64,000 bases of DNA. Origin: Myxococcota bacterium (GTDB taxonomy: Bacteria > Myxococcota_A > Polyangia > DRWM01). Each line of letters opens with the position of its first letter. Positions within the stretch are counted from its first letter, which is position 1. The position numbers were made by a program, and so were the translations under genes. Below the pieces are notes generated by a model. The model was given only the letters and a program-made list of their open reading frames with translations, did not search any database and was not told the origin of the DNA. Shown here piece by piece: positions 49,449-59,078 of this stretch. The stretch spans positions 1,463 through 65,462 of the forward strand of contig JBFYZU010000103.1 in NCBI GenBank assembly GCA_041309365.1, read 5' to 3'.

Positions 49449-50804
49449 ATGAAACCGCAAGATCTCGTCACGGTCGTCACGCTGCTGTGCATGGGATGCG
49501 GAGGAACCGTGAGCACGGCCGGCGATGCGGGTGCGGACTGGACGAACGATATCGCGATGGACATCGGGCATGACGGCATCCTCGTATGCGGAGACGAGCG
49601 TACGCCTCCGGGGGGCGGCTCGTGGCCCATCGTCAACGGAAGCCTCGTTTGGGATACGGCGGTCGTGGATCTCGCGGACGGTCAGGCGCTCGCCGTGGGT
49701 GCGCTCATGTCACAGGGATACGGCGGCGAGTGGGACAATATCTGCACGGCCACGCTCGTGGCTCCGGCCCTCGTGCTCACGGCAGCTCACTGCGTGCGAG
49801 GCTGGAGCGGCGACGAGCCCGCGTCCTCTTTCCGGTTCGCCGTGGGAGACGACGTGGCTTCGCCCGTGCACATGTATGCGCCCATTCTCGCCCAGTCCAA
49901 CCCCAGCTACGCCGGAAGCTGGGGTGGAAGCGCCGAATGGGACGTGGCCGTGCTCGTGCTCGGCGAGCCCGCCATGACGGCCGTGCCTGCCATCGAGCCC
50001 ATCCCCATGAACTGCGAGGTCATCGAGTCCACCGCGTTCGTTGGACAGGATGTGCAGAACGTCGGGTACGGGATCACGGACACCGACTGGGGCGCTTTGC
50101 CCAACACGCTCAGGTGGTGGACAGTGGAGGAGGTCGTGGCGCTCGGCGCGTACGACTTCACAGTGGACGGTCACGGTGTGAGCAGCGTGTGCAACGGCGA
50201 TTCTGGTGGACCCAGCCTGTGGACCATGCCGGACGGCACGATCCGGGTCATGGGCACCGTGAGCTGGGGCGCACCCGACTGCGTGAGCGAGGATCACTTC
50301 GCCCGCGTGGACTACAACTGCGGTTTTATTTCTGGATTCCTCGAGAGCTGCGGTGAAGTCACGCCGGAGGGGTTCTGCGACGGCGACCAGGCCGTCTGGT
50401 GCGAGGGTGGCTCGCTCACTCGCGTAGACTGCGCGGCCTCGGGCCGCATCTGCGCCGACGACGGTACGGGACACATGCGGTGCATCGACCTTTCCGACCC
50501 CTGCGGCGATGTCACGGAGCAGGGCACCTGCGAGGGCAACACGGCCGTCTGGTGCGAGGCAGGGGCGCTGATGAGCCTGGACTGCGCCTTGACGGGGCTT
50601 GTCTGCGGTGACGATGGCACGGGTCGCATGCGCTGCCTCGAGGAGGATCCCTGCTTTGGCCTGGGATGGGAAGGCGCCTGTGAGGGCAACGACGCGATAT
50701 GGTGCGAGGATGGAAACATCCGCCGCCGCCTGTGCACGGACTGCGGCCAGATCTGCGGCTTCGACACGGACATGGGTGCCTACTACTGTATTGACCCGGC
50801 CTGA
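49449..50804 (+). CDS. trypsin-like (S1) serine protease lipoprotein with four C-terminal Cys-rich repeats
   Basis: TAAHC, DVAVLVL and GDSGGP triad blocks. Lipobox LLCMGC. 4 x about 40-aa CxGxxAVWCExGxLxxxxCxxxGxxCxDDGTGxMRC. Confidence 0.8.
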   Translation: MKPQDLVTVVTLLCMGCGGTVSTAGDAGADWTNDIAMDIGHDGILVCGDERTPPGGGSWPIVNGSLVWDTAVVDLADGQALAVGALMSQGYGGEWDNICTATLVAPALVLTAAHCVRGWSGDEPASSFRFAVGDDVASPVHMYAPILAQSNPSYAGSWGGSAEWDVAVLVLGEPAMTAVPAIEPIPMNCEVIESTAFVGQDVQNVGYGITDTDWGALPNTLRWWTVEEVVALGAYDFTVDGHGVSSVCNGDSGGPSLWTMPDGTIRVMGTVSWGAPDCVSEDHFARVDYNCGFISGFLESCGEVTPEGFCDGDQAVWCEGGSLTRVDCAASGRICADDGTGHMRCIDLSDPCGDVTEQGTCEGNTAVWCEAGALMSLDCALTGLVCGDDGTGRMRCLEEDPCFGLGWEGACEGNDAIWCEDGNIRRRLCTDCGQICGFDTDMGAYYCIDPA

Positions 50805-51496: not shown

Positions 51497-52216
51497 ATGA
51501 AAGCCAGCCCCATGTCCGCAGCGCTTCACCTGGTCTCCCGGGCAATGGGCCGCGGATCGCCGGCATCGCTCGCACCCTGGCTCGAGGGAGAGCTCGTGAG
51601 CGCGGCCCTCGCGCAGGCAGGCGGTCCGGAACGAGAGGCCGCATCGTTCGCGCCCCTTCACCCGACGTGGGTCACGAAACCTCTTCTCGACCTGCCCGGG
51701 GCAGCGAGGGCCGGCTTGCTGATGATCCTCGGTCAGGAACTGGCCCGGTACGCGGCCCTGGCGCTGGAAGCACGAGGCCTGGAACCCCTCCAGACGGTGG
51801 GGTGCTCGCCGCCAGCGGCCGCCTCGGCAACAGGACTCGTGCGGTCCCTGTTCGCCATCCCTCAGGCGACAGCCGACGATCCGCGCGAGGATCCGGCACG
51901 CTTCCTCACACGGGATGCCGATCGCGTTCCGGTGTCCACCGTCTTCGAGCGCTGGCCAACGGTCGCAAGAGAAGTCGAGGCGGATATCCAGGCCGCGCTG
52001 CCACCCGGTCTTGCGGGGATGGACAGAGTCATGACGGCAATGGCCGCCTGTCTGAGCGACCGCGAGGACCTGGCCGGATCGGTGGCGCGAGGACTGCCCC
52101 GACACATCGGACTCACGTTCATGCGGGCACGCAACCGGTGGTGGCTCGCTCTGAAGCCTGGTGAGCCTGCAATGCTGCTCGCCGCTCTTGGAATGGAGGG
52201 ACGATGGGACGCGTGA
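51497..52216 (+). CDS. hypothetical protein (precedes and overlaps FliH/SctL-like gene)
   Basis: 239-aa Ala/Leu-rich ORF. Start is 2 nt after the upstream stop. Overlaps the next gene by 13 nt. Confidence 0.4.
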   Translation: MKASPMSAALHLVSRAMGRGSPASLAPWLEGELVSAALAQAGGPEREAASFAPLHPTWVTKPLLDLPGAARAGLLMILGQELARYAALALEARGLEPLQTVGCSPPAAASATGLVRSLFAIPQATADDPREDPARFLTRDADRVPVSTVFERWPTVAREVEADIQAALPPGLAGMDRVMTAMAACLSDREDLAGSVARGLPRHIGLTFMRARNRWWLALKPGEPAMLLAALGMEGRWDA

Positions 52217-52752
52217 TCAAGGGGCAGGGCCGCTTCGAGGCAGAGGAGCTGGCCTCGGTGGGCACGGCGCGAGAGATGCTCGCACAGGTCGAGCGGTTGA
52301 GGGAGCGTGCACGCCAGGAGGGGTTCGAGGAGGGCACGGCACGAGCGGCCGCGTTGCTCGTTCTGGCCGAGCAGATCAGGCGAGGCGCCGTCGAACGGGC
52401 CATGGAGGATGTCGTAGATCTGAGCCTGAACGTGGCCGGCGCACTGCACGAGCGCGCGGCACGCGAGGATCCTGCCATTGTGATGTCGGTTGCGAAGGAG
52501 GCCCTGGAGAGGATGGGCAATGCACGGCCGGTCATCTTGCGTGTAGCCCCCACCGAGGCCCTCGCTGCAGAGGATCTCGTCGTGCGGTGCTCGGGCTGCG
52601 TGAAGGTCGTTGCCGAAGATGGCATCGAGGCCGGCGGCTGCATCGTCGAGTCGAGCACGGGCACGGTGGACGCAAGGGTGCCCACGAGGCTCGAGGCCCT
52701 GCGCAGGGCCCTCATCCTGTCACGAGGATCGAAGAACGGCGGCGACGCTTGA
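52204..52752 (+). CDS. FliH/SctL (YscL/HrpE)-like protein
   Basis: Coiled-coil N-half and a C-terminal block AGGCIVESSTGTVDARVPTRLEAL resembling the FliH/SctL GGCxxET..G.VDAS/A signature. Confidence 0.5.
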   Translation: MGRVIKGQGRFEAEELASVGTAREMLAQVERLRERARQEGFEEGTARAAALLVLAEQIRRGAVERAMEDVVDLSLNVAGALHERAAREDPAIVMSVAKEALERMGNARPVILRVAPTEALAAEDLVVRCSGCVKVVAEDGIEAGGCIVESSTGTVDARVPTRLEALRRALILSRGSKNGGDA

Positions 52753-54328: not shown

Positions 54329-55588
54329 TCAGATGGGGATTTCCACGATCGAGAGCTGGAAGCCGGTCATGTCCGAGTAGGTGTAGGGACCCATACCGAT
54401 GGGATGACTCTCCACGTCGTAGGTGGCGGGGTTGATCTTGAGCGCCGCGTTGCCGCCCTGGGAAACGGCCCAGACGAAGCCCTGGTGGTCGATGGCCACT
54501 CCCACGATGTCCGCAGGGCCTGCGGCGAACTGGTGGATGAGGCCCACCGAGTCCTCCGAGATTCGCACCACGTCGCCGTGCGTGACCGCGGCCCACACCG
54601 AACCCTCGTTGTCCACGGCGATGCCGCGGTTGAACTGCGAGAATCCGGAGTTGTAGGTCCTGTTCTCACCCGTCGACGGATCGTGACGGTTGATGCACCC
54701 GAGGCCTGCGGTCCAGACGCGGCCCAACCTGTCGACGCTGATGCCGTAGCCGCATGGCACGTTGACGATCTCGTAGGTCATGGTGGCCATGTCCATCTTG
54801 GAGAGCCGGCAAAGGCCCACCGTGCATCCCATTGCAACGGTCCAGAAGTGGCCGCGCCCATCCATGGCTCCGCCGTAGGTTCCGATGCCGGCTGGCGCCT
54901 GGTCCAGGATCGCACCCGAGTCGCCGTCGAGCACGTAGATGGTCTGGTTGTTCATGCAGCCGATCCAGACGTTGCCTCCAAGGCCGCTGTCCGGATCCTC
55001 GTTGCCTTCCCAGGCCGTGGCCCTGCAACCCGTGCTCATCGAGGGGTTGCCCAGGACCGTGTTCCAGATCATGCACTCGTCCTCACCCCAGGGCAGGACG
55101 TCGGTTGCGCCCGTGGAAGTCTGAATGTCGCCGTCACCACTAATATCCACGCACTCGGACTTCTCGGCCGCGAACTTGGTGACGGAGGAAGGGCCGCTCG
55201 CAGGATCGCGATTGGTCACCACCATGTCTCCGTGAAGGTTGACCGAGGTCCGGGAGGGATCTCCCGAGGCTTCCTGTGGGCTCGTGTAGTACCGGCCCAT
55301 CTCGACGCCGGTGATCGTGCAGAGCTTCGAGAGGGTGCCTTCTGCCGAGTTGGCTATCCAGATATAGGACTTCTCGGGACATCCGGGCGGCGGCGTCACG
55401 TCGGAGACCGTGTCCGTCGCATCGGGTGGCGGCGTGTAGTCCCAGTCGGCGTACGTATCGTCCGCCGAGGGATCGCCAATGGTGTCCGCGATTCCGTCCC
55501 AGGGATTGTAATCGGGCCCATCGTGCGCGCCGCAGGTCCCAAGGCATGGTGCGAGCAGCACCACGCATACCATGGTCAATCGCTGCAT
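54329..55588 (-). CDS. secreted beta-propeller-like protein
   Basis: Signal peptide with LAPCLGTCG. Repeated G..W.A/G..VW motifs reminiscent of NHL/Vgb-type propeller blades. Confidence 0.4.
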   Translation of the reverse strand: MQRLTMVCVVLLAPCLGTCGAHDGPDYNPWDGIADTIGDPSADDTYADWDYTPPPDATDTVSDVTPPPGCPEKSYIWIANSAEGTLSKLCTITGVEMGRYYTSPQEASGDPSRTSVNLHGDMVVTNRDPASGPSSVTKFAAEKSECVDISGDGDIQTSTGATDVLPWGEDECMIWNTVLGNPSMSTGCRATAWEGNEDPDSGLGGNVWIGCMNNQTIYVLDGDSGAILDQAPAGIGTYGGAMDGRGHFWTVAMGCTVGLCRLSKMDMATMTYEIVNVPCGYGISVDRLGRVWTAGLGCINRHDPSTGENRTYNSGFSQFNRGIAVDNEGSVWAAVTHGDVVRISEDSVGLIHQFAAGPADIVGVAIDHQGFVWAVSQGGNAALKINPATYDVESHPIGMGPYTYSDMTGFQLSIVEIPI

Positions 55589-55673: not shown

Positions 55674-56414
55674 TCACCAACCCAGGATGAGCCTCAGGGC
55701 AAAGTTCGCATCCCCGCGCGCTTCGTTGATCCTGTCGGAGGCCGACTCGATGTCGTACTCGACACGGATGAACGTTATCCGCCTCTCGTCCGAATCCAGA
55801 AGCACCCAGCTCGACCGGTTGTCCAGATCGCGCGGCTGGCCCACGCTGCCCACGGATATGATGTAGCGCGGCCCATCCAGACTGTACACGAAGTCGCGCT
55901 CTGACATCTCGTGCACGTCGTAATCCCGGACCATGTAGACCTTGCACAGGTGGGAGTGTCCGAGGAATGTGAGCCTCGGCAACCTGTCGATGATGGAGAA
56001 CAGCTTCTGGACGTGATCGAGCTCGAAGATGTAGTCGAAGTTCTCGGGGTGCAGTGGCGACCCGTGGGTGAGAAGAACGTCCAGCTCCGGCACGCGCCTC
56101 GTGTAGGGAATGTCCCTGAGCCAGGCCATGCTGTCCGGTGCCAGGATGCGACTGTGCTGGTCGAGAACGTTGCGCGCGGAGTCGTAGTAGTAATCGTAGT
56201 TCATGCGGCCAGAAACGGCCGCGTCGTGGTTTCCGAGCACCGTGGCGTCCACCATGCGCCGCACGACCCTGCAGCACTCGTTGGGCCAGCCGCCGTAGCC
56301 CACCGTGTCGCCCAGGCAGAACACCTTGTCCACGCGTCGCTCCTCGATGGACGCCTTGACCGACAGCAGTGCGTCGAGGTTGGCGTGCACATCGCTGATG
56401 AGCGCTACTCTCAT
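55674..56414 (-). CDS. metallophosphoesterase (YfcE/MJ0936-like)
   Basis: ISDVHAN, GDTVGYGG, GNHD and GHSH motifs. Confidence 0.8.
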   Translation of the reverse strand: MRVALISDVHANLDALLSVKASIEERRVDKVFCLGDTVGYGGWPNECCRVVRRMVDATVLGNHDAAVSGRMNYDYYYDSARNVLDQHSRILAPDSMAWLRDIPYTRRVPELDVLLTHGSPLHPENFDYIFELDHVQKLFSIIDRLPRLTFLGHSHLCKVYMVRDYDVHEMSERDFVYSLDGPRYIISVGSVGQPRDLDNRSSWVLLDSDERRITFIRVEYDIESASDRINEARGDANFALRLILGW

Positions 56415-56423
56415 GTCGACTCT

Positions 56424-59078
56424 CTAGTCACGGAGCAATCTGGTGTGGACATCCCGGAAAAACAGCAGTGCCGGATCGTCGGTCTCCGCCTTGAGCAGGG
56501 CGTCGAGCTCGGACTGCACCTGGTGACGCCTGTCCCATCCGCGACGGGCGAGCGCGGCGAGAGTGAGGTCCTGCTCGGCCGCCATCTCCTTGACCTGGGC
56601 CTCGCATCCTGACTGAGCCAGGGCGCCTGTCAGAAAGGCCATCCTCTCGTCGCAACCGTGCGGGTTGCGAAGGAACTGCTCGACGGTTCTCGTGGCTGCC
56701 GAGCCGTAACGTGCGAGCACGAAGGCCATGATCTTCCACTCGGGTTCGTCGCGCTCGCACAGCGCATTGATGAGCGGTACCACGGCGGTGCGTATCCTGA
56801 GCTTGCCCAGGGCCACGGCCGAGGCGAGTCGAACCAGCGGGGCGTTCGACTTCAACCCGTCCAGAAAGAAGCTCTCGCCAGCCTCGTCGAGCTGCATGAT
56901 GTACGGGATGAGCTCGAGGATGTCGGCGGGCGCCATGCATTCCATTGCCACCGCGATCTCGGCGAGTCCCTGAGGGCCCCCACGACGCAGGATCTCCACT
57001 GCGGCCGCCGCCCTGCGGGATGGCCTGAAGAGCCAGCGGGAGAGCACGTCTCCTTGCAGGTCCGGAAGCGGTGTGGCGTCAAGGGCGGCCACCTTCTCGA
57101 CGCCCGGGACCTTCAGATCCGAGACGCCCAGGAAATCGAGGGCCATCTCCGCCACCTCCAGGCTCACGGGCACGCCGTGCCTGCCGACCGCGTCCAGGAG
57201 GCGGCGCCAGTTGTCCGTCATCTGCTCGTGCGAGAGATCCGTGCCTGCGCGACAGATGGCGAGGAATGCGCCCAAGGAATGCATGAGCAGGGCCGGAACG
57301 TCATCTGCCAGCCCCATGGACACGGCGTCCTCGGGCAGAGCGCCGGGCAGATCCAGGCCTGCCGAGACCGCCCGCGTGAGGATGCGCCTCTTGATTGTAG
57401 CGATGCCCTCCAGGGGGAATGAGTAGATGCGTACGAGCCGTCGGACGTTCTCCTGTGCCCCCCACTCGTCGAGATCCGACAGGGCCTCGACCAGGCCAGC
57501 GTGGCTCACGTGATCCTCGACGTACCTGGCGTGAAACGGGAATGGCTTCTTGAGCTCATCGAGAAGCCTGCCCATGATGTACGGCTCGTCCACGGCATCC
57601 TGGCTCTGCATGTCGGGATTGTCGAGGAAGATCCTCTCCACGTCCGCGGCGATGCTCTTGACGTTGCCCTCGATGCGATTGGCCGCTTTGAACGTCGCTT
57701 CACGCCCCATATCCGGCGTCACGAGCGTGACGAGCGCCGAGCAGCTCTCGCCGAGCTTGCCCACGATGCGCCGGTGCACCCTTACCTTGTAGTCCAGAAG
57801 CCAGGGGAAAAGATGCGCCTTGCCCGAAAGGGGCCTCACGGCCAAGCTCAGCACGATCCATGTGTAACCGGACCTGTCCTCGACCTGATGCACCCTGAAG
57901 CGGACTGACGTCTTCCCGACGTCACGGAACATGGAATCGTCCCCGGAGACCGCGAACAGCTCGACGCGATCTCCGTCGAGACGCACGAACCGTCTGTCCC
58001 TGCCCGAGAGCGCCTCGCGCGCCTCTGCATCGAGTCCCCTCGGCGAGGGTCCCGTCTTTCGAGGCACCGCGGCCGGGCTGGCGGCCCTGGCCCTCGTCGG
58101 ACGTGCGGTCGCCAGTGCAGGCTTCGGTGCCGTTACGGGTGCCCTGTCCTCGACCTCAGCCTCCTCGTCGAGGAGGTCCGTCTCCTCGATGACGTCGTCA
58201 TCGGAAACGGCGTATTCCGCTGGACGGCCTGCGGTCCGCGAGGCAGGGGCCTTCGGCAGCGCCTGCTCGATGCTCCTCTCGAGCGTCGATGCAGGCGACG
58301 AGATCTCCTCGAAAATGGCTGCAGGCCTGGCCTGGGTCACGACTTCCGCAGGAAACCTGCCGGGTAGAGGGCCGTCAGGCTCACGGACGGTGAAGGTGCG
58401 GTCGCGCGTCTCGATCTGCCGGGCGAACTCCTCCACCTCGATCCGCCGCCGCTCGATCTCCTGGGACTGGCGCGAGAGCGCGACCCTGAACTCCTCGACC
58501 TCCTGCATCTTGCGGTCGACCTCGACGAGCCTGGCCTCGATGTCTGCCGTTCGGGCGGCGATCTTTTGCTCTCTCGAGCGCACGTCCCGGGCCTCGGCCT
58601 CGAGTGCCTCCTTGAGTCGGGCGAGATCCATGTTGACAGCGGCGTGACCTGGAGCCGACAGTGCGGGACGCAGGTTCGCGTGACCATGGACGACCCCGAA
58701 ATCGACGACGTGCTCGGGCAGGCCTCCCGCGGCTGCCGACAACGACTCGAGAAGCCCGACCAGGGGATCTGTCTCCTCGTGCCTCTCGCAATCAGGAATA
58801 TAAAGGACGAGCCTCTTCGAGGCGGGATCGTGAAGGACGCATCGGGCATCGACCACGGCCCTGACACCGCAACCCGGGCAGATGCCCTGGTTGAGATTGC
58901 CATCGAGCAAGCGTTGCAACAGATCCGCACGCTCGGAAACGTCTATGGATGTGTGCAGGTCCATGGGGTAGCGATCGCCGCAGGGGCATGCATAGAGGGT
59001 CACCCGTGTGCTCGACCTCGTGTCCTTCGTCGATCTTGCAGTCATCGGCCACTCTCCCCGGGGCAAAAAGACTAGCAC
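56424..59078 (-). CDS. CpXC-domain zinc-ribbon / coiled-coil / HEAT-like repeat protein
   Basis: N-terminus YACPCGDRY ... GICPGCG (two CxxC pairs). Long charged coiled-coil (EARDVRSREQKIAARTADIEARLVEVDRKMQE...). Acidic/Pro-rich linker. C-terminal alpha-solenoid. Confidence 0.45.
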   Translation of the reverse strand: MLVFLPRGEWPMTARSTKDTRSSTRVTLYACPCGDRYPMDLHTSIDVSERADLLQRLLDGNLNQGICPGCGVRAVVDARCVLHDPASKRLVLYIPDCERHEETDPLVGLLESLSAAAGGLPEHVVDFGVVHGHANLRPALSAPGHAAVNMDLARLKEALEAEARDVRSREQKIAARTADIEARLVEVDRKMQEVEEFRVALSRQSQEIERRRIEVEEFARQIETRDRTFTVREPDGPLPGRFPAEVVTQARPAAIFEEISSPASTLERSIEQALPKAPASRTAGRPAEYAVSDDDVIEETDLLDEEAEVEDRAPVTAPKPALATARPTRARAASPAAVPRKTGPSPRGLDAEAREALSGRDRRFVRLDGDRVELFAVSGDDSMFRDVGKTSVRFRVHQVEDRSGYTWIVLSLAVRPLSGKAHLFPWLLDYKVRVHRRIVGKLGESCSALVTLVTPDMGREATFKAANRIEGNVKSIAADVERIFLDNPDMQSQDAVDEPYIMGRLLDELKKPFPFHARYVEDHVSHAGLVEALSDLDEWGAQENVRRLVRIYSFPLEGIATIKRRILTRAVSAGLDLPGALPEDAVSMGLADDVPALLMHSLGAFLAICRAGTDLSHEQMTDNWRRLLDAVGRHGVPVSLEVAEMALDFLGVSDLKVPGVEKVAALDATPLPDLQGDVLSRWLFRPSRRAAAAVEILRRGGPQGLAEIAVAMECMAPADILELIPYIMQLDEAGESFFLDGLKSNAPLVRLASAVALGKLRIRTAVVPLINALCERDEPEWKIMAFVLARYGSAATRTVEQFLRNPHGCDERMAFLTGALAQSGCEAQVKEMAAEQDLTLAALARRGWDRRHQVQSELDALLKAETDDPALLFFRDVHTRLLRD

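Follow-up and report, generated by a model that had tools for sequence, protein, structure and literature searches.

A large multidomain protein genetically linked with a metallophosphoesterase in myxobacteria

Background

The stretch of DNA analysed here, 64,000 nucleotides of a Myxococcota contig (the window), encodes on its reverse strand a large protein of several dissimilar domains, followed almost immediately by a metallophosphoesterase (MPE). The question raised by this arrangement is whether the two products function together, and if so, what the large protein contributes. The genetic linkage of a large non-enzymatic protein with a phosphoesterase is well supported by the evidence presented below. 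Our preferred reading, to which we assign a probability of about one half, is that the locus is a two-gene myxobacterial module, in which an adaptor and the MPE are co-expressed and assemble into a complex.

The gene pair

The locus comprises the following two genes.

56424..59045, minus strand: gene for the large adaptor-like protein, from the open reading frame list (873 aa when read from the ATG at 59045)
55674..56414, minus strand: gene for the MPE (246 aa), downstream of the large gene

An earlier, sequence-only reading gave the large protein a length of 884 aa, which is indeed the length of the maximal open reading frame listed, beginning at a GTG at 59078 (56424..59078, minus strand). 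Translation is likely to start at the ATG at 59045 instead, with a product of 873 aa, because a Shine-Dalgarno-like sequence, GGGGAGAG (59052..59059), is located 6 nt upstream of it, the equivalent methionine is the start of all homologues, and the public copy of the protein (P0001) is 873 aa long. The stop codon of the large gene precedes the ATG of the MPE gene by 9 nt, as had been reported, and both reading frames are on the same strand and in the same frame. No promoter-like or terminator-like sites were found between the two genes in a promoter and terminator scan, and Rfam and tRNA scans of the window returned no matches.

The metallophosphoesterase

By its sequence the MPE qualifies as a member of the calcineurin-like metallophosphoesterase superfamily, with Pfam scores of 58.9 bits for Metallophos (cut-off 21.5) and 52.9 bits for Metallophos_2. 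Its metal-ligand motifs are complete (D8xH10, G35D36, G61N62H63D64 and G152H153xH155), and it aligns end to end (residues 1-243, E 1e-35) with a protein of solved structure, PDB 3RQZ, with which it has in common the motifs ISDVHANL, LGDxVGYG, GNHD, HGSP (the histidine being aligned), GHxH and GxVGQPRD. The best explanation of these features is that the MPE is a dinuclear, catalytically intact enzyme of the 3RQZ type. The 3RQZ structure has no assigned function or partner; the likeness places the MPE in a subfamily and does not indicate a substrate. Entries 1NNW, 2GJU and 3QFM are more distant relatives. The enzyme had previously been called YfcE-like, a description that is correct at the level of the superfamily but not of the YfcE family, for which the score (TIGR00040, 23.3 bits) is below the cut-off of 56.25. 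Scores for ApaH were also below the cut-offs (19.6 bits against 222.85 for TIGR00668, and 28.4 against 176 for PRK00166). A search of the literature on myxobacterial metallophosphoesterases found none on the present family.

Domain architecture of the large protein

The large protein was divided into the following regions, listed from the N-terminus to the C-terminus.

58656..59018, minus strand: CpXC-type domain, residues ~10-130 (Pfam PF14353, AF2 model, cysteine positions)
58392..58640, minus strand: coiled-coil stalk, residues 136-218 (high in Arg and Glu, modelled by AF2 as one long helix)
58038..58391, minus strand: disordered linker rich in Pro, Ala and acidic residues, residues 219-336 (pLDDT below 50, composition)
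57606..58037, minus strand: family-specific alpha/beta domain, residues ~337-480 (conserved, predicted with pLDDT 94)
57336..57605, minus strand: helical connector, residues 481-570 (conserved, with motifs PFPFH, YSFPLEG and RAV..G.DLP)
56427..57335, minus strand: HEAT-like alpha-solenoid, residues 571-873 (pLDDT 85-90, alphaRep matches)

No enzyme family of Pfam, NCBIfam, PADLOC or PHROGs was matched by this protein, no function-suggesting matches were obtained from PADLOC or PHROGs, and no transmembrane segment was found in it.

Both the N-terminal and the C-terminal domain assignments of the sequence-only reading were upheld by domain searches. The Pfam CpXC profile (PF14353) matches residues 19-92 of the 873-aa form at 54.6 bits (E 1.4e-14), above the gathering cut-off of 25.4, and 21 of a diverse set of 31 family members match it as well. 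The AF2 model of the domain consists of beta strands and helices (pLDDT 70-80). The domain had been described as a double-CxxC zinc ribbon, but only the second cysteine pair (C56-x-x-C59) has this spacing, the first (C20-x-C22) being CxC. The four cysteines are candidate zinc ligands, invariant in 9 close homologues, and in the lineage of the window the domain reads as a zinc ribbon. All four are kept in just 60 of 152 family members, and zinc ligands are absent from 76 of the 152. The Pfam CpXC family is a small, uncharacterised zinc-ribbon family, which the present domain resembles in its profile match and in having four cysteines in two pairs; here, however, the domain heads a multi-domain protein of 873 aa and its first pair is CxC, and half of the adaptor family lacks the cysteines yet retains H72, P110 and Y112, which are invariant or nearly so family-wide. 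A literature search for the function of CpXC (PF14353) found none.

The long charged coiled coil described previously is supported by the helix predicted for residues 136-218 and by heptad statistics: in the best register, Leu, Ile, Val, Met or Phe occupies 67% of the a and d positions, compared to 10% elsewhere. The stalk has weak matches to coiled-coil proteins. Its length is highly variable in the family, the longer members differing only by longer coils, and no adaptor-enzyme fusions were found. The Pro-rich, acidic linker that follows was likewise correctly recognised from the sequence; residues 219-336 are predicted to be disordered and are high in Ala, Pro and Glu. Within the linker is a conserved acidic-hydrophobic motif, VSDDDVIEE..L.DEE, with D284, V285, E287, E288 and E294 invariant among the close family.

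Because a Foldseek search with the whole protein gave matches to the solenoid alone, the central alpha/beta domain was modelled on its own. No convincing relative of residues 337-480 was found among solved structures, and this domain is a candidate for a fold without a solved representative. A PilZ identity was considered and rejected, as inspection revealed that the RxxxR-like motif is not conserved. The domain was absent from the earlier list of domains. The connector was modelled poorly (AF2 with a shallow alignment, pLDDT 30-50); in an alignment of 31 sequences, its residues S542, P544, A559 and G563 are invariant or nearly so.

The C-terminal alpha-solenoid is predicted with pLDDT 85-90 and is similar to alphaRep proteins in sequence (phmmer E 4e-15, or E 9e-62 with the family profile) and in predicted fold (Foldseek E 4.5e-4, with additional matches to AP2 and importin). 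Of 31 family members, 21 match HEAT_2. The protein of the window, searched singly, scores 13.5-13.9 bits with Pfam HEAT_2 and HEAT, below the cut-offs of 23.5-27.7. The repeats are like those of HEAT-like proteins of the PBS-lyase/alphaRep type (HEAT_2, HEAT_PBS; PDB 3LTJ, 6FT5 and others) in sequence and predicted fold, but unlike in being confined to the last third of the protein and in scoring below the Pfam HEAT cut-offs for the single protein.

Distribution of the family and conservation of the pairing

A word-indexed homologue search returned only 9 relatives of the large protein, and a rerun with a 31-sequence profile added none. This number reflects the limit of the index and not the size of the family, since an exhaustive profile search gave 1370 matches; at E ≤ 1e-30, the profile search identified at least 234 cluster representatives. 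All of the family members whose annotation was checked are hypothetical or unnamed, and the organism labels seen are all myxobacterial or broader metagenome-assembled genome names.

In all eight close relatives (adaptor 46-54% identical), the MPE gene is adjacent and on the same strand, the measured gaps being 4-12 nt. The enzyme is far better conserved than the adaptor (70-84% identity). Among more divergent homologues, the gene of one that is 24% identical overlaps the enzyme gene by 4 nt, and another that has no cysteines, matched to the family with an hhalign probability of 100% (E 2e-65), is adjacent to the enzyme as well. A search of metagenomes with a 12-sequence alignment of the Cys-less subgroup alone found adjacency in 28 of 34 assessable distant loci; in the ~6 others, the gene that comes next is a LuxR-type, SnoaL or DUF2252 gene. 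The pair holds down to ~21-24% adaptor identity, in at least four flanking contexts, marked by an ABC transporter together with Zn_peptidase_2 and ArsR; by a DNA methylase and a MiaB-like gene; by PEGA proteins and LuxC/LuxE; and by a gene with a Lon-substrate-binding domain and a histidine kinase. Since the flanking genes differ between groups, the pair is the constant unit. The expectation that the two genes would be adjacent elsewhere is therefore borne out in close and distant relatives alike and, the pair being conserved across uncultured myxobacteria, the two proteins probably work together.

The alternative that survives best, although doubtful, is that the two genes share a transcription unit, side by side, without a joint function, the large protein acting by itself as one of the structural or polar scaffold proteins common in the myxobacterial cytoplasm and the MPE as a housekeeping hydrolase of nucleotides or Ap4A. 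Consistent with this, closely related enzymes ~51-52% identical to the MPE are found alone at three loci (some with kinase genes nearby), no residue beyond one I/V position cleanly distinguishes enzymes on the solo side of the enzyme tree from the paired ones, adjacency is broken at some loci, and distant lineages have gaps (53-240 nt) that leave room for separate promoters. Against it are the persistence of the pair while all flanking genes change, the gaps of -4 to 12 nt, which suggest translational coupling in several lineages, and the phylogeny of the enzymes. In an unbootstrapped neighbour-joining tree of 145 enzymes, all paired enzymes are on one side and the three known solo enzymes on the other. 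The tree also correctly predicted the neighbour of an enzyme whose locus had yet to be inspected: P0094, which falls within the paired group, does have a member of the adaptor family encoded upstream.

Other roles considered for the pair

The sequence-only reading had also suggested that the large protein is a nucleic-acid-associated factor. Such a module, in which the zinc ribbon or the central domain would bind DNA or RNA and the MPE would be a nuclease, an end-processing enzyme or a hydrolase of RNA 5' ends (Np4N caps), loosely resembling Mre11-Rad50 or ApaH-type decapping, is unlikely. It has in its favour the four cysteines of the CpXC domain and the activity of ApaH-family enzymes, which are able to act on nucleotide caps. 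The data do not support nucleic-acid binding, as the family-wide median net charge is -3 for the N-terminal domain, -6 for the central domain and -11 for the C-terminal 300 residues, and the zinc ligands have been lost from about half of the family. Furthermore, no ATPase head was found in the protein, its similarity to Rad50 is in the coil only (E 0.44), and the MPE is below the ApaH cut-offs.

Slightly less probable again is a relationship of enzyme and substrate, in which the Ser/Thr/Pro-rich linker of the large protein would be phosphorylated by myxobacterial Ser/Thr kinases and reset by the MPE. The linker contains several SP and TP sites, kinase genes are located near some of the solo enzymes, the JGI label of the enzyme family is "ApaH/PP2A family protein phosphatase", and the MPE matches a PHROG of NinI-like Ser/Thr phosphatases (E 4.6e-9). 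However, the linker sequence is poorly conserved except for its acidic motif, and of the PPP signature motifs GDxHG, GDxxDRG and GNH[ED] (PMC535813), the MPE has only GNHD, with SDVHAN and GDTVGYG in place of the first two.

An anti-phage defence or mobile-element module is very improbable: the large protein matches PADLOC-DB solely through its coil (PbeC, E 0.005) and the MPE not at all, the locus is conserved, is inherited vertically and keeps stable neighbours of housekeeping type, its GC content (~64%) is that of the rest of the window, and a scan of the window for tRNA genes was negative.

A possible adaptor-phosphoesterase complex

According to the preferred reading of the pair as an adaptor-MPE module, the large protein would be an elongated adaptor without a recognisable catalytic domain, probably dimeric via its coiled coil, in which a conserved CpXC-type head is followed by the stalk and the acidic and Pro-rich linker, each variable in length, and then by the alpha/beta domain and the HEAT-like solenoid. 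The genes would most likely be co-expressed, with translational coupling in the lineage of the window. One conserved domain of the adaptor would hold or gate the phosphoesterase within the complex, the solenoid being the leading candidate by analogy with other HEAT-scaffolded enzymes, and the remaining conserved domains would set the site or the target of enzyme action. Correlations between the distance matrices of adaptor domains and enzyme are high for all domains (r 0.77-0.93), the highest being that of the N-terminal domain and not the solenoid; they are attributable to shared phylogeny, so that no binding domain is singled out. We infer the interaction, the binding domain and the dimerisation, as well as the substrate, which may be a phosphoprotein, a dinucleoside polyphosphate or other nucleotide, or another phosphoester. 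An alpha-solenoid, a coiled coil and a disordered linker are typical elements of scaffolds. The earlier proposal of a scaffold with a partner phosphoesterase thus stands as regards genetic linkage and conserved adjacency, and we infer its physical part, the scaffold role of the large protein.

In PP2A A-C and in retromer Vps35-Vps29, HEAT or other solenoid scaffolds are bound to subunits with a metallophosphoesterase fold. The present locus resembles these in the genetic linkage of an alpha-solenoid protein with one of calcineurin fold, a likeness by analogy only. The MPE is not PP2A-like, because the PPP motifs are missing, and it differs from Vps29 in retaining all of the metal ligands. As in Mre11-Rad50 (SbcCD), an MPE gene is found beside that of a long coiled-coil protein with cysteine motifs, but the adaptor lacks an ABC ATPase head, its cysteines belong to a globular N-terminal domain and not to a mid-coil hook, the gene order is reversed, the MPE is much smaller, and the sequence similarity is coiled-coil noise. 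A more specific proposal, possible but tentative, is that a dimeric adaptor made up of a coiled coil, HEAT-like repeats and a new fold binds and targets a 3RQZ-type MPE, forming a holoenzyme not described previously, which would be a convergent bacterial counterpart of PP2A A-C and Vps35-Vps29 with the CpXC-derived head as a targeting or sensing module.

If the complex forms, it would provide the first functional context for the CpXC domain, and a functional context both for a widespread myxobacterial family (at least 234 clusters) and for phosphoesterases of the 3RQZ type; it would also be an instance of scaffold regulation of a phosphoesterase among bacteria known for eukaryote-like signalling. 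The central alpha/beta domain, with its candidate new fold, is a reasonable target for structure determination.

A putative adaptor gene linked to a phosphoesterase gene

A large protein and a metallophosphoesterase are encoded consecutively in the window:

56424..59078, minus strand: open reading frame of the large protein in its maximal form (GTG start, 884 aa)
55674..56414, minus strand: phosphoesterase (246 aa)

The stop codon of the large gene lies 9 nt from the ATG of the enzyme gene, as an earlier reading made without database searches (the sequence-only reading) had stated, and the two genes share a reading frame. Translation of the large gene most likely begins at the ATG at 59045 (product 873 aa, the form used for residue numbers), because GGGGAGAG is located 6 nt upstream, the equivalent methionine is the first residue in all homologues, and P0001, a public protein of identical sequence, has 873 aa.

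The best-supported interpretation is that the large protein serves the phosphoesterase as an adaptor or regulatory partner, which fits its scaffold-type building blocks, the tight and deep gene linkage, and the much stronger conservation of the enzyme. Such an adaptor would lack catalytic activity, have an elongated shape and probably form dimers; that it binds the enzyme, through which domain, and on what substrate the enzyme acts are matters that we infer. Of the scaffold with a partner phosphoesterase that had been proposed, the gene linkage and the scaffold-type elements are borne out, and physical binding is presumed.

Architecture of the large protein

Regions of the large protein in an AlphaFold2 model built on a 9-sequence alignment (mean pLDDT 67.8)
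Residues 10-130: alpha/beta head, pLDDT 70-80
Residues 136-218: one long helix
Residues 219-336: disordered stretch, pLDDT <50
Residues 340-475: alpha/beta domain, pLDDT about 80
Residues 497-570: weakly modelled helices, pLDDT 30-50
Residues 571-873: alpha-solenoid, pLDDT 85-90

Residues 19-92 match Pfam CpXC (PF14353) with 54.6 bits, the cut-off being 25.4. Zinc could be bound by C20-x-C22 and C56-x-x-C59; of the double-CxxC ribbon proposed earlier the CpXC assignment and the second pair thus stand, but the first pair is CxC. The long coiled coil, the Pro/acidic linker and the C-terminal solenoid of the sequence-only reading were all recovered. The single modelled helix has a clear heptad pattern (best register 67% L/I/V/M/F at a/d versus 10% elsewhere), and the disordered linker is enriched in Ala, Pro and Glu and carries a conserved acidic-hydrophobic motif. 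The solenoid matches HEAT-like alphaRep chains by sequence (E 4e-15), with the family profile (E 9e-62) and in Foldseek; the large protein alone scores below Pfam HEAT cut-offs, and 21 of 31 relatives match HEAT_2. An alpha/beta domain at residues 337-480, missed earlier, goes unmatched in Pfam even at E 10, was found in 133 family sequences, and modelled alone (71-sequence alignment) reaches pLDDT 94.4 and pTM 0.88. The large protein has no transmembrane segment and no enzyme-family match in Pfam, NCBIfam, PADLOC or PHROGs.

Family size and variation

Only 9 relatives of the large protein were found by a word-indexed search; an exhaustive profile search, run against 1.84 billion representatives, gave 1370 hits at E <=1e-3, 499 at E <=1e-10 and 234 at E <=1e-30. 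Most hits are 800-1100 aa long, and their matched stretches jointly span the head at the N-terminus and the solenoid at the C-terminus. Every source name seen is "hypothetical protein", and all organism labels are metagenome-assembled genomes of Myxococcales, Sandaracinaceae, "Deltaproteobacteria" or "Proteobacteria".

Among 152 N-terminal domains, the four cysteines are complete in 60, partly present in 16 and absent from 76, while H72 never varies and P110 and Y112 persist in 149; zinc binding is thus dispensable for the family role, and this pattern suggests that the head has a conserved zinc-independent site. The CpXC model is matched by 21 of the 31 members of a diverse family alignment despite frequent cysteine loss (P0135, P0137 and others), about two thirds of which are Cys-less on inspection of the N-termini. 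Coil and linker lengths differ widely, long members having longer coils only. In P0180, a family member of 1347 aa, a 14-residue unit (ELAGQQDELAQGQA) is repeated many times in tandem and so enlarges the coiled-coil region; stalk length is therefore free to vary.

Conservation of the gene pair

In all eight close relatives the enzyme gene is directly downstream on the same strand (gaps of 4-12 nt where measured), with identities of 46-54% for the adaptor and 66-84% for the enzyme. The pairing persists at locus L011, where adaptor identity is down to 24% and the two genes share 4 nt, and at L050 and L051, where the adaptor is Cys-less and short-coiled (hhalign probability 100%, E 2e-65 against the family). 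In the distant Cys-less subgroup the enzyme gene follows in 28 of 34 assessable metagenome loci (gaps 2-240 nt). The synteny check set by the sequence-only reading thus came out in its favour. The flanking genes vary from group to group, which marks the pair as the conserved unit. The exceptions are about six loci with a LuxR-type, SnoaL or DUF2252 gene after the adaptor, and three solo enzymes about 51-52% identical to that of the window. An unbootstrapped neighbour-joining tree of 145 enzymes separates all paired enzymes from the three known solo ones; P0094 sits among the former, and its upstream partner, predicted from the tree, was then confirmed.

In a subgroup that lacks the phosphoesterase, the gene after the adaptor codes for a helix-turn-helix protein of the LuxR/GerE type, about 175 aa long (L023 7717..9290, L046 7939..8457), adjoined in L023 by a CarH-like MerR plus B12-binding regulator. 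In L009 (8642..9284), one of the close relatives, the enzyme gene beside the adaptor is broken: it is divided between two frames, and the part corresponding to residues 103-134 is missing, through either pseudogene formation or faulty assembly.

The phosphoesterase and alternative roles

The enzyme matches both Metallophos and Metallophos_2, keeps the metal-ligand motifs (D8xH10, G35D36, G61N62H63D64, G152H153xH155), and can be aligned over its whole length with PDB 3RQZ, a metallophosphoesterase whose deposition carries no functional name. Membership of PPP, ApaH or YfcE was tested and rejected: the enzyme scores under the ApaH and YfcE family cut-offs, contrary to its earlier description as YfcE-like, and lacks the PPP signatures GDxHG and GDxxDRG (as defined in PMC535813). 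Nor does the pair qualify as SbcCD; no ATPase head was found.

A nucleic-acid role, also proposed from sequence, is disfavoured because the N-terminal domain, the central domain and the last 300 residues are acidic across the family, zinc ligands are frequently lost, and profile searches found no nucleic-acid-binding family or ATPase head. A role in anti-phage defence is likewise disfavoured, by the PADLOC result and the stable, vertically inherited locus context. Searches for adaptor-enzyme fusions, clade-specific enzyme residues and mirror-tree correlations did not separate the readings.

In PP2A A-C and Vps35-Vps29, phosphoesterase-fold subunits are scaffolded by solenoids; these are the closest analogies to the putative adaptor and its enzyme, in organisation only. 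The parts (CpXC, coiled coil, HEAT-like repeats, calcineurin-fold enzyme) are known, but no description of their combination, the central domain or the conserved pairing was found in the searchable literature. The pair is a solid, widespread and uncharacterised module of a putative scaffold and a phosphoesterase, and not so much a surprising mechanism.

Neighbouring genes

49449..50804, plus strand: secreted trypsin-family protease
51497..52216, plus strand: unannotated 239-aa ORF
52204..52752, plus strand: 182-aa protein with FliH domain (E 4.9e-15)
54329..55588, minus strand: 419-aa protein with signal-peptide-like N-terminus

The beta-propeller matches of the 419-aa protein (SGL, Vgb lyase) are weak and below cut-off. 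In most close relatives, L002 and L003 excepted, the gene after that of the phosphoesterase encodes a homologue of about 415-420 aa without a Pfam match. The 239-aa ORF, the FliH-domain gene and a downstream Peptidase_M50 (site-2-protease-like) gene are kept together in L001, L002, L003, L005 and L010, and genes for flagella or type III secretion were not seen near the FliH-domain gene. The C-terminal third of the trypsin-family protease carries four Cys-rich modules in tandem, each about 40 aa long, with the pattern C.G..AVWCE.G.L...DC...G..C.
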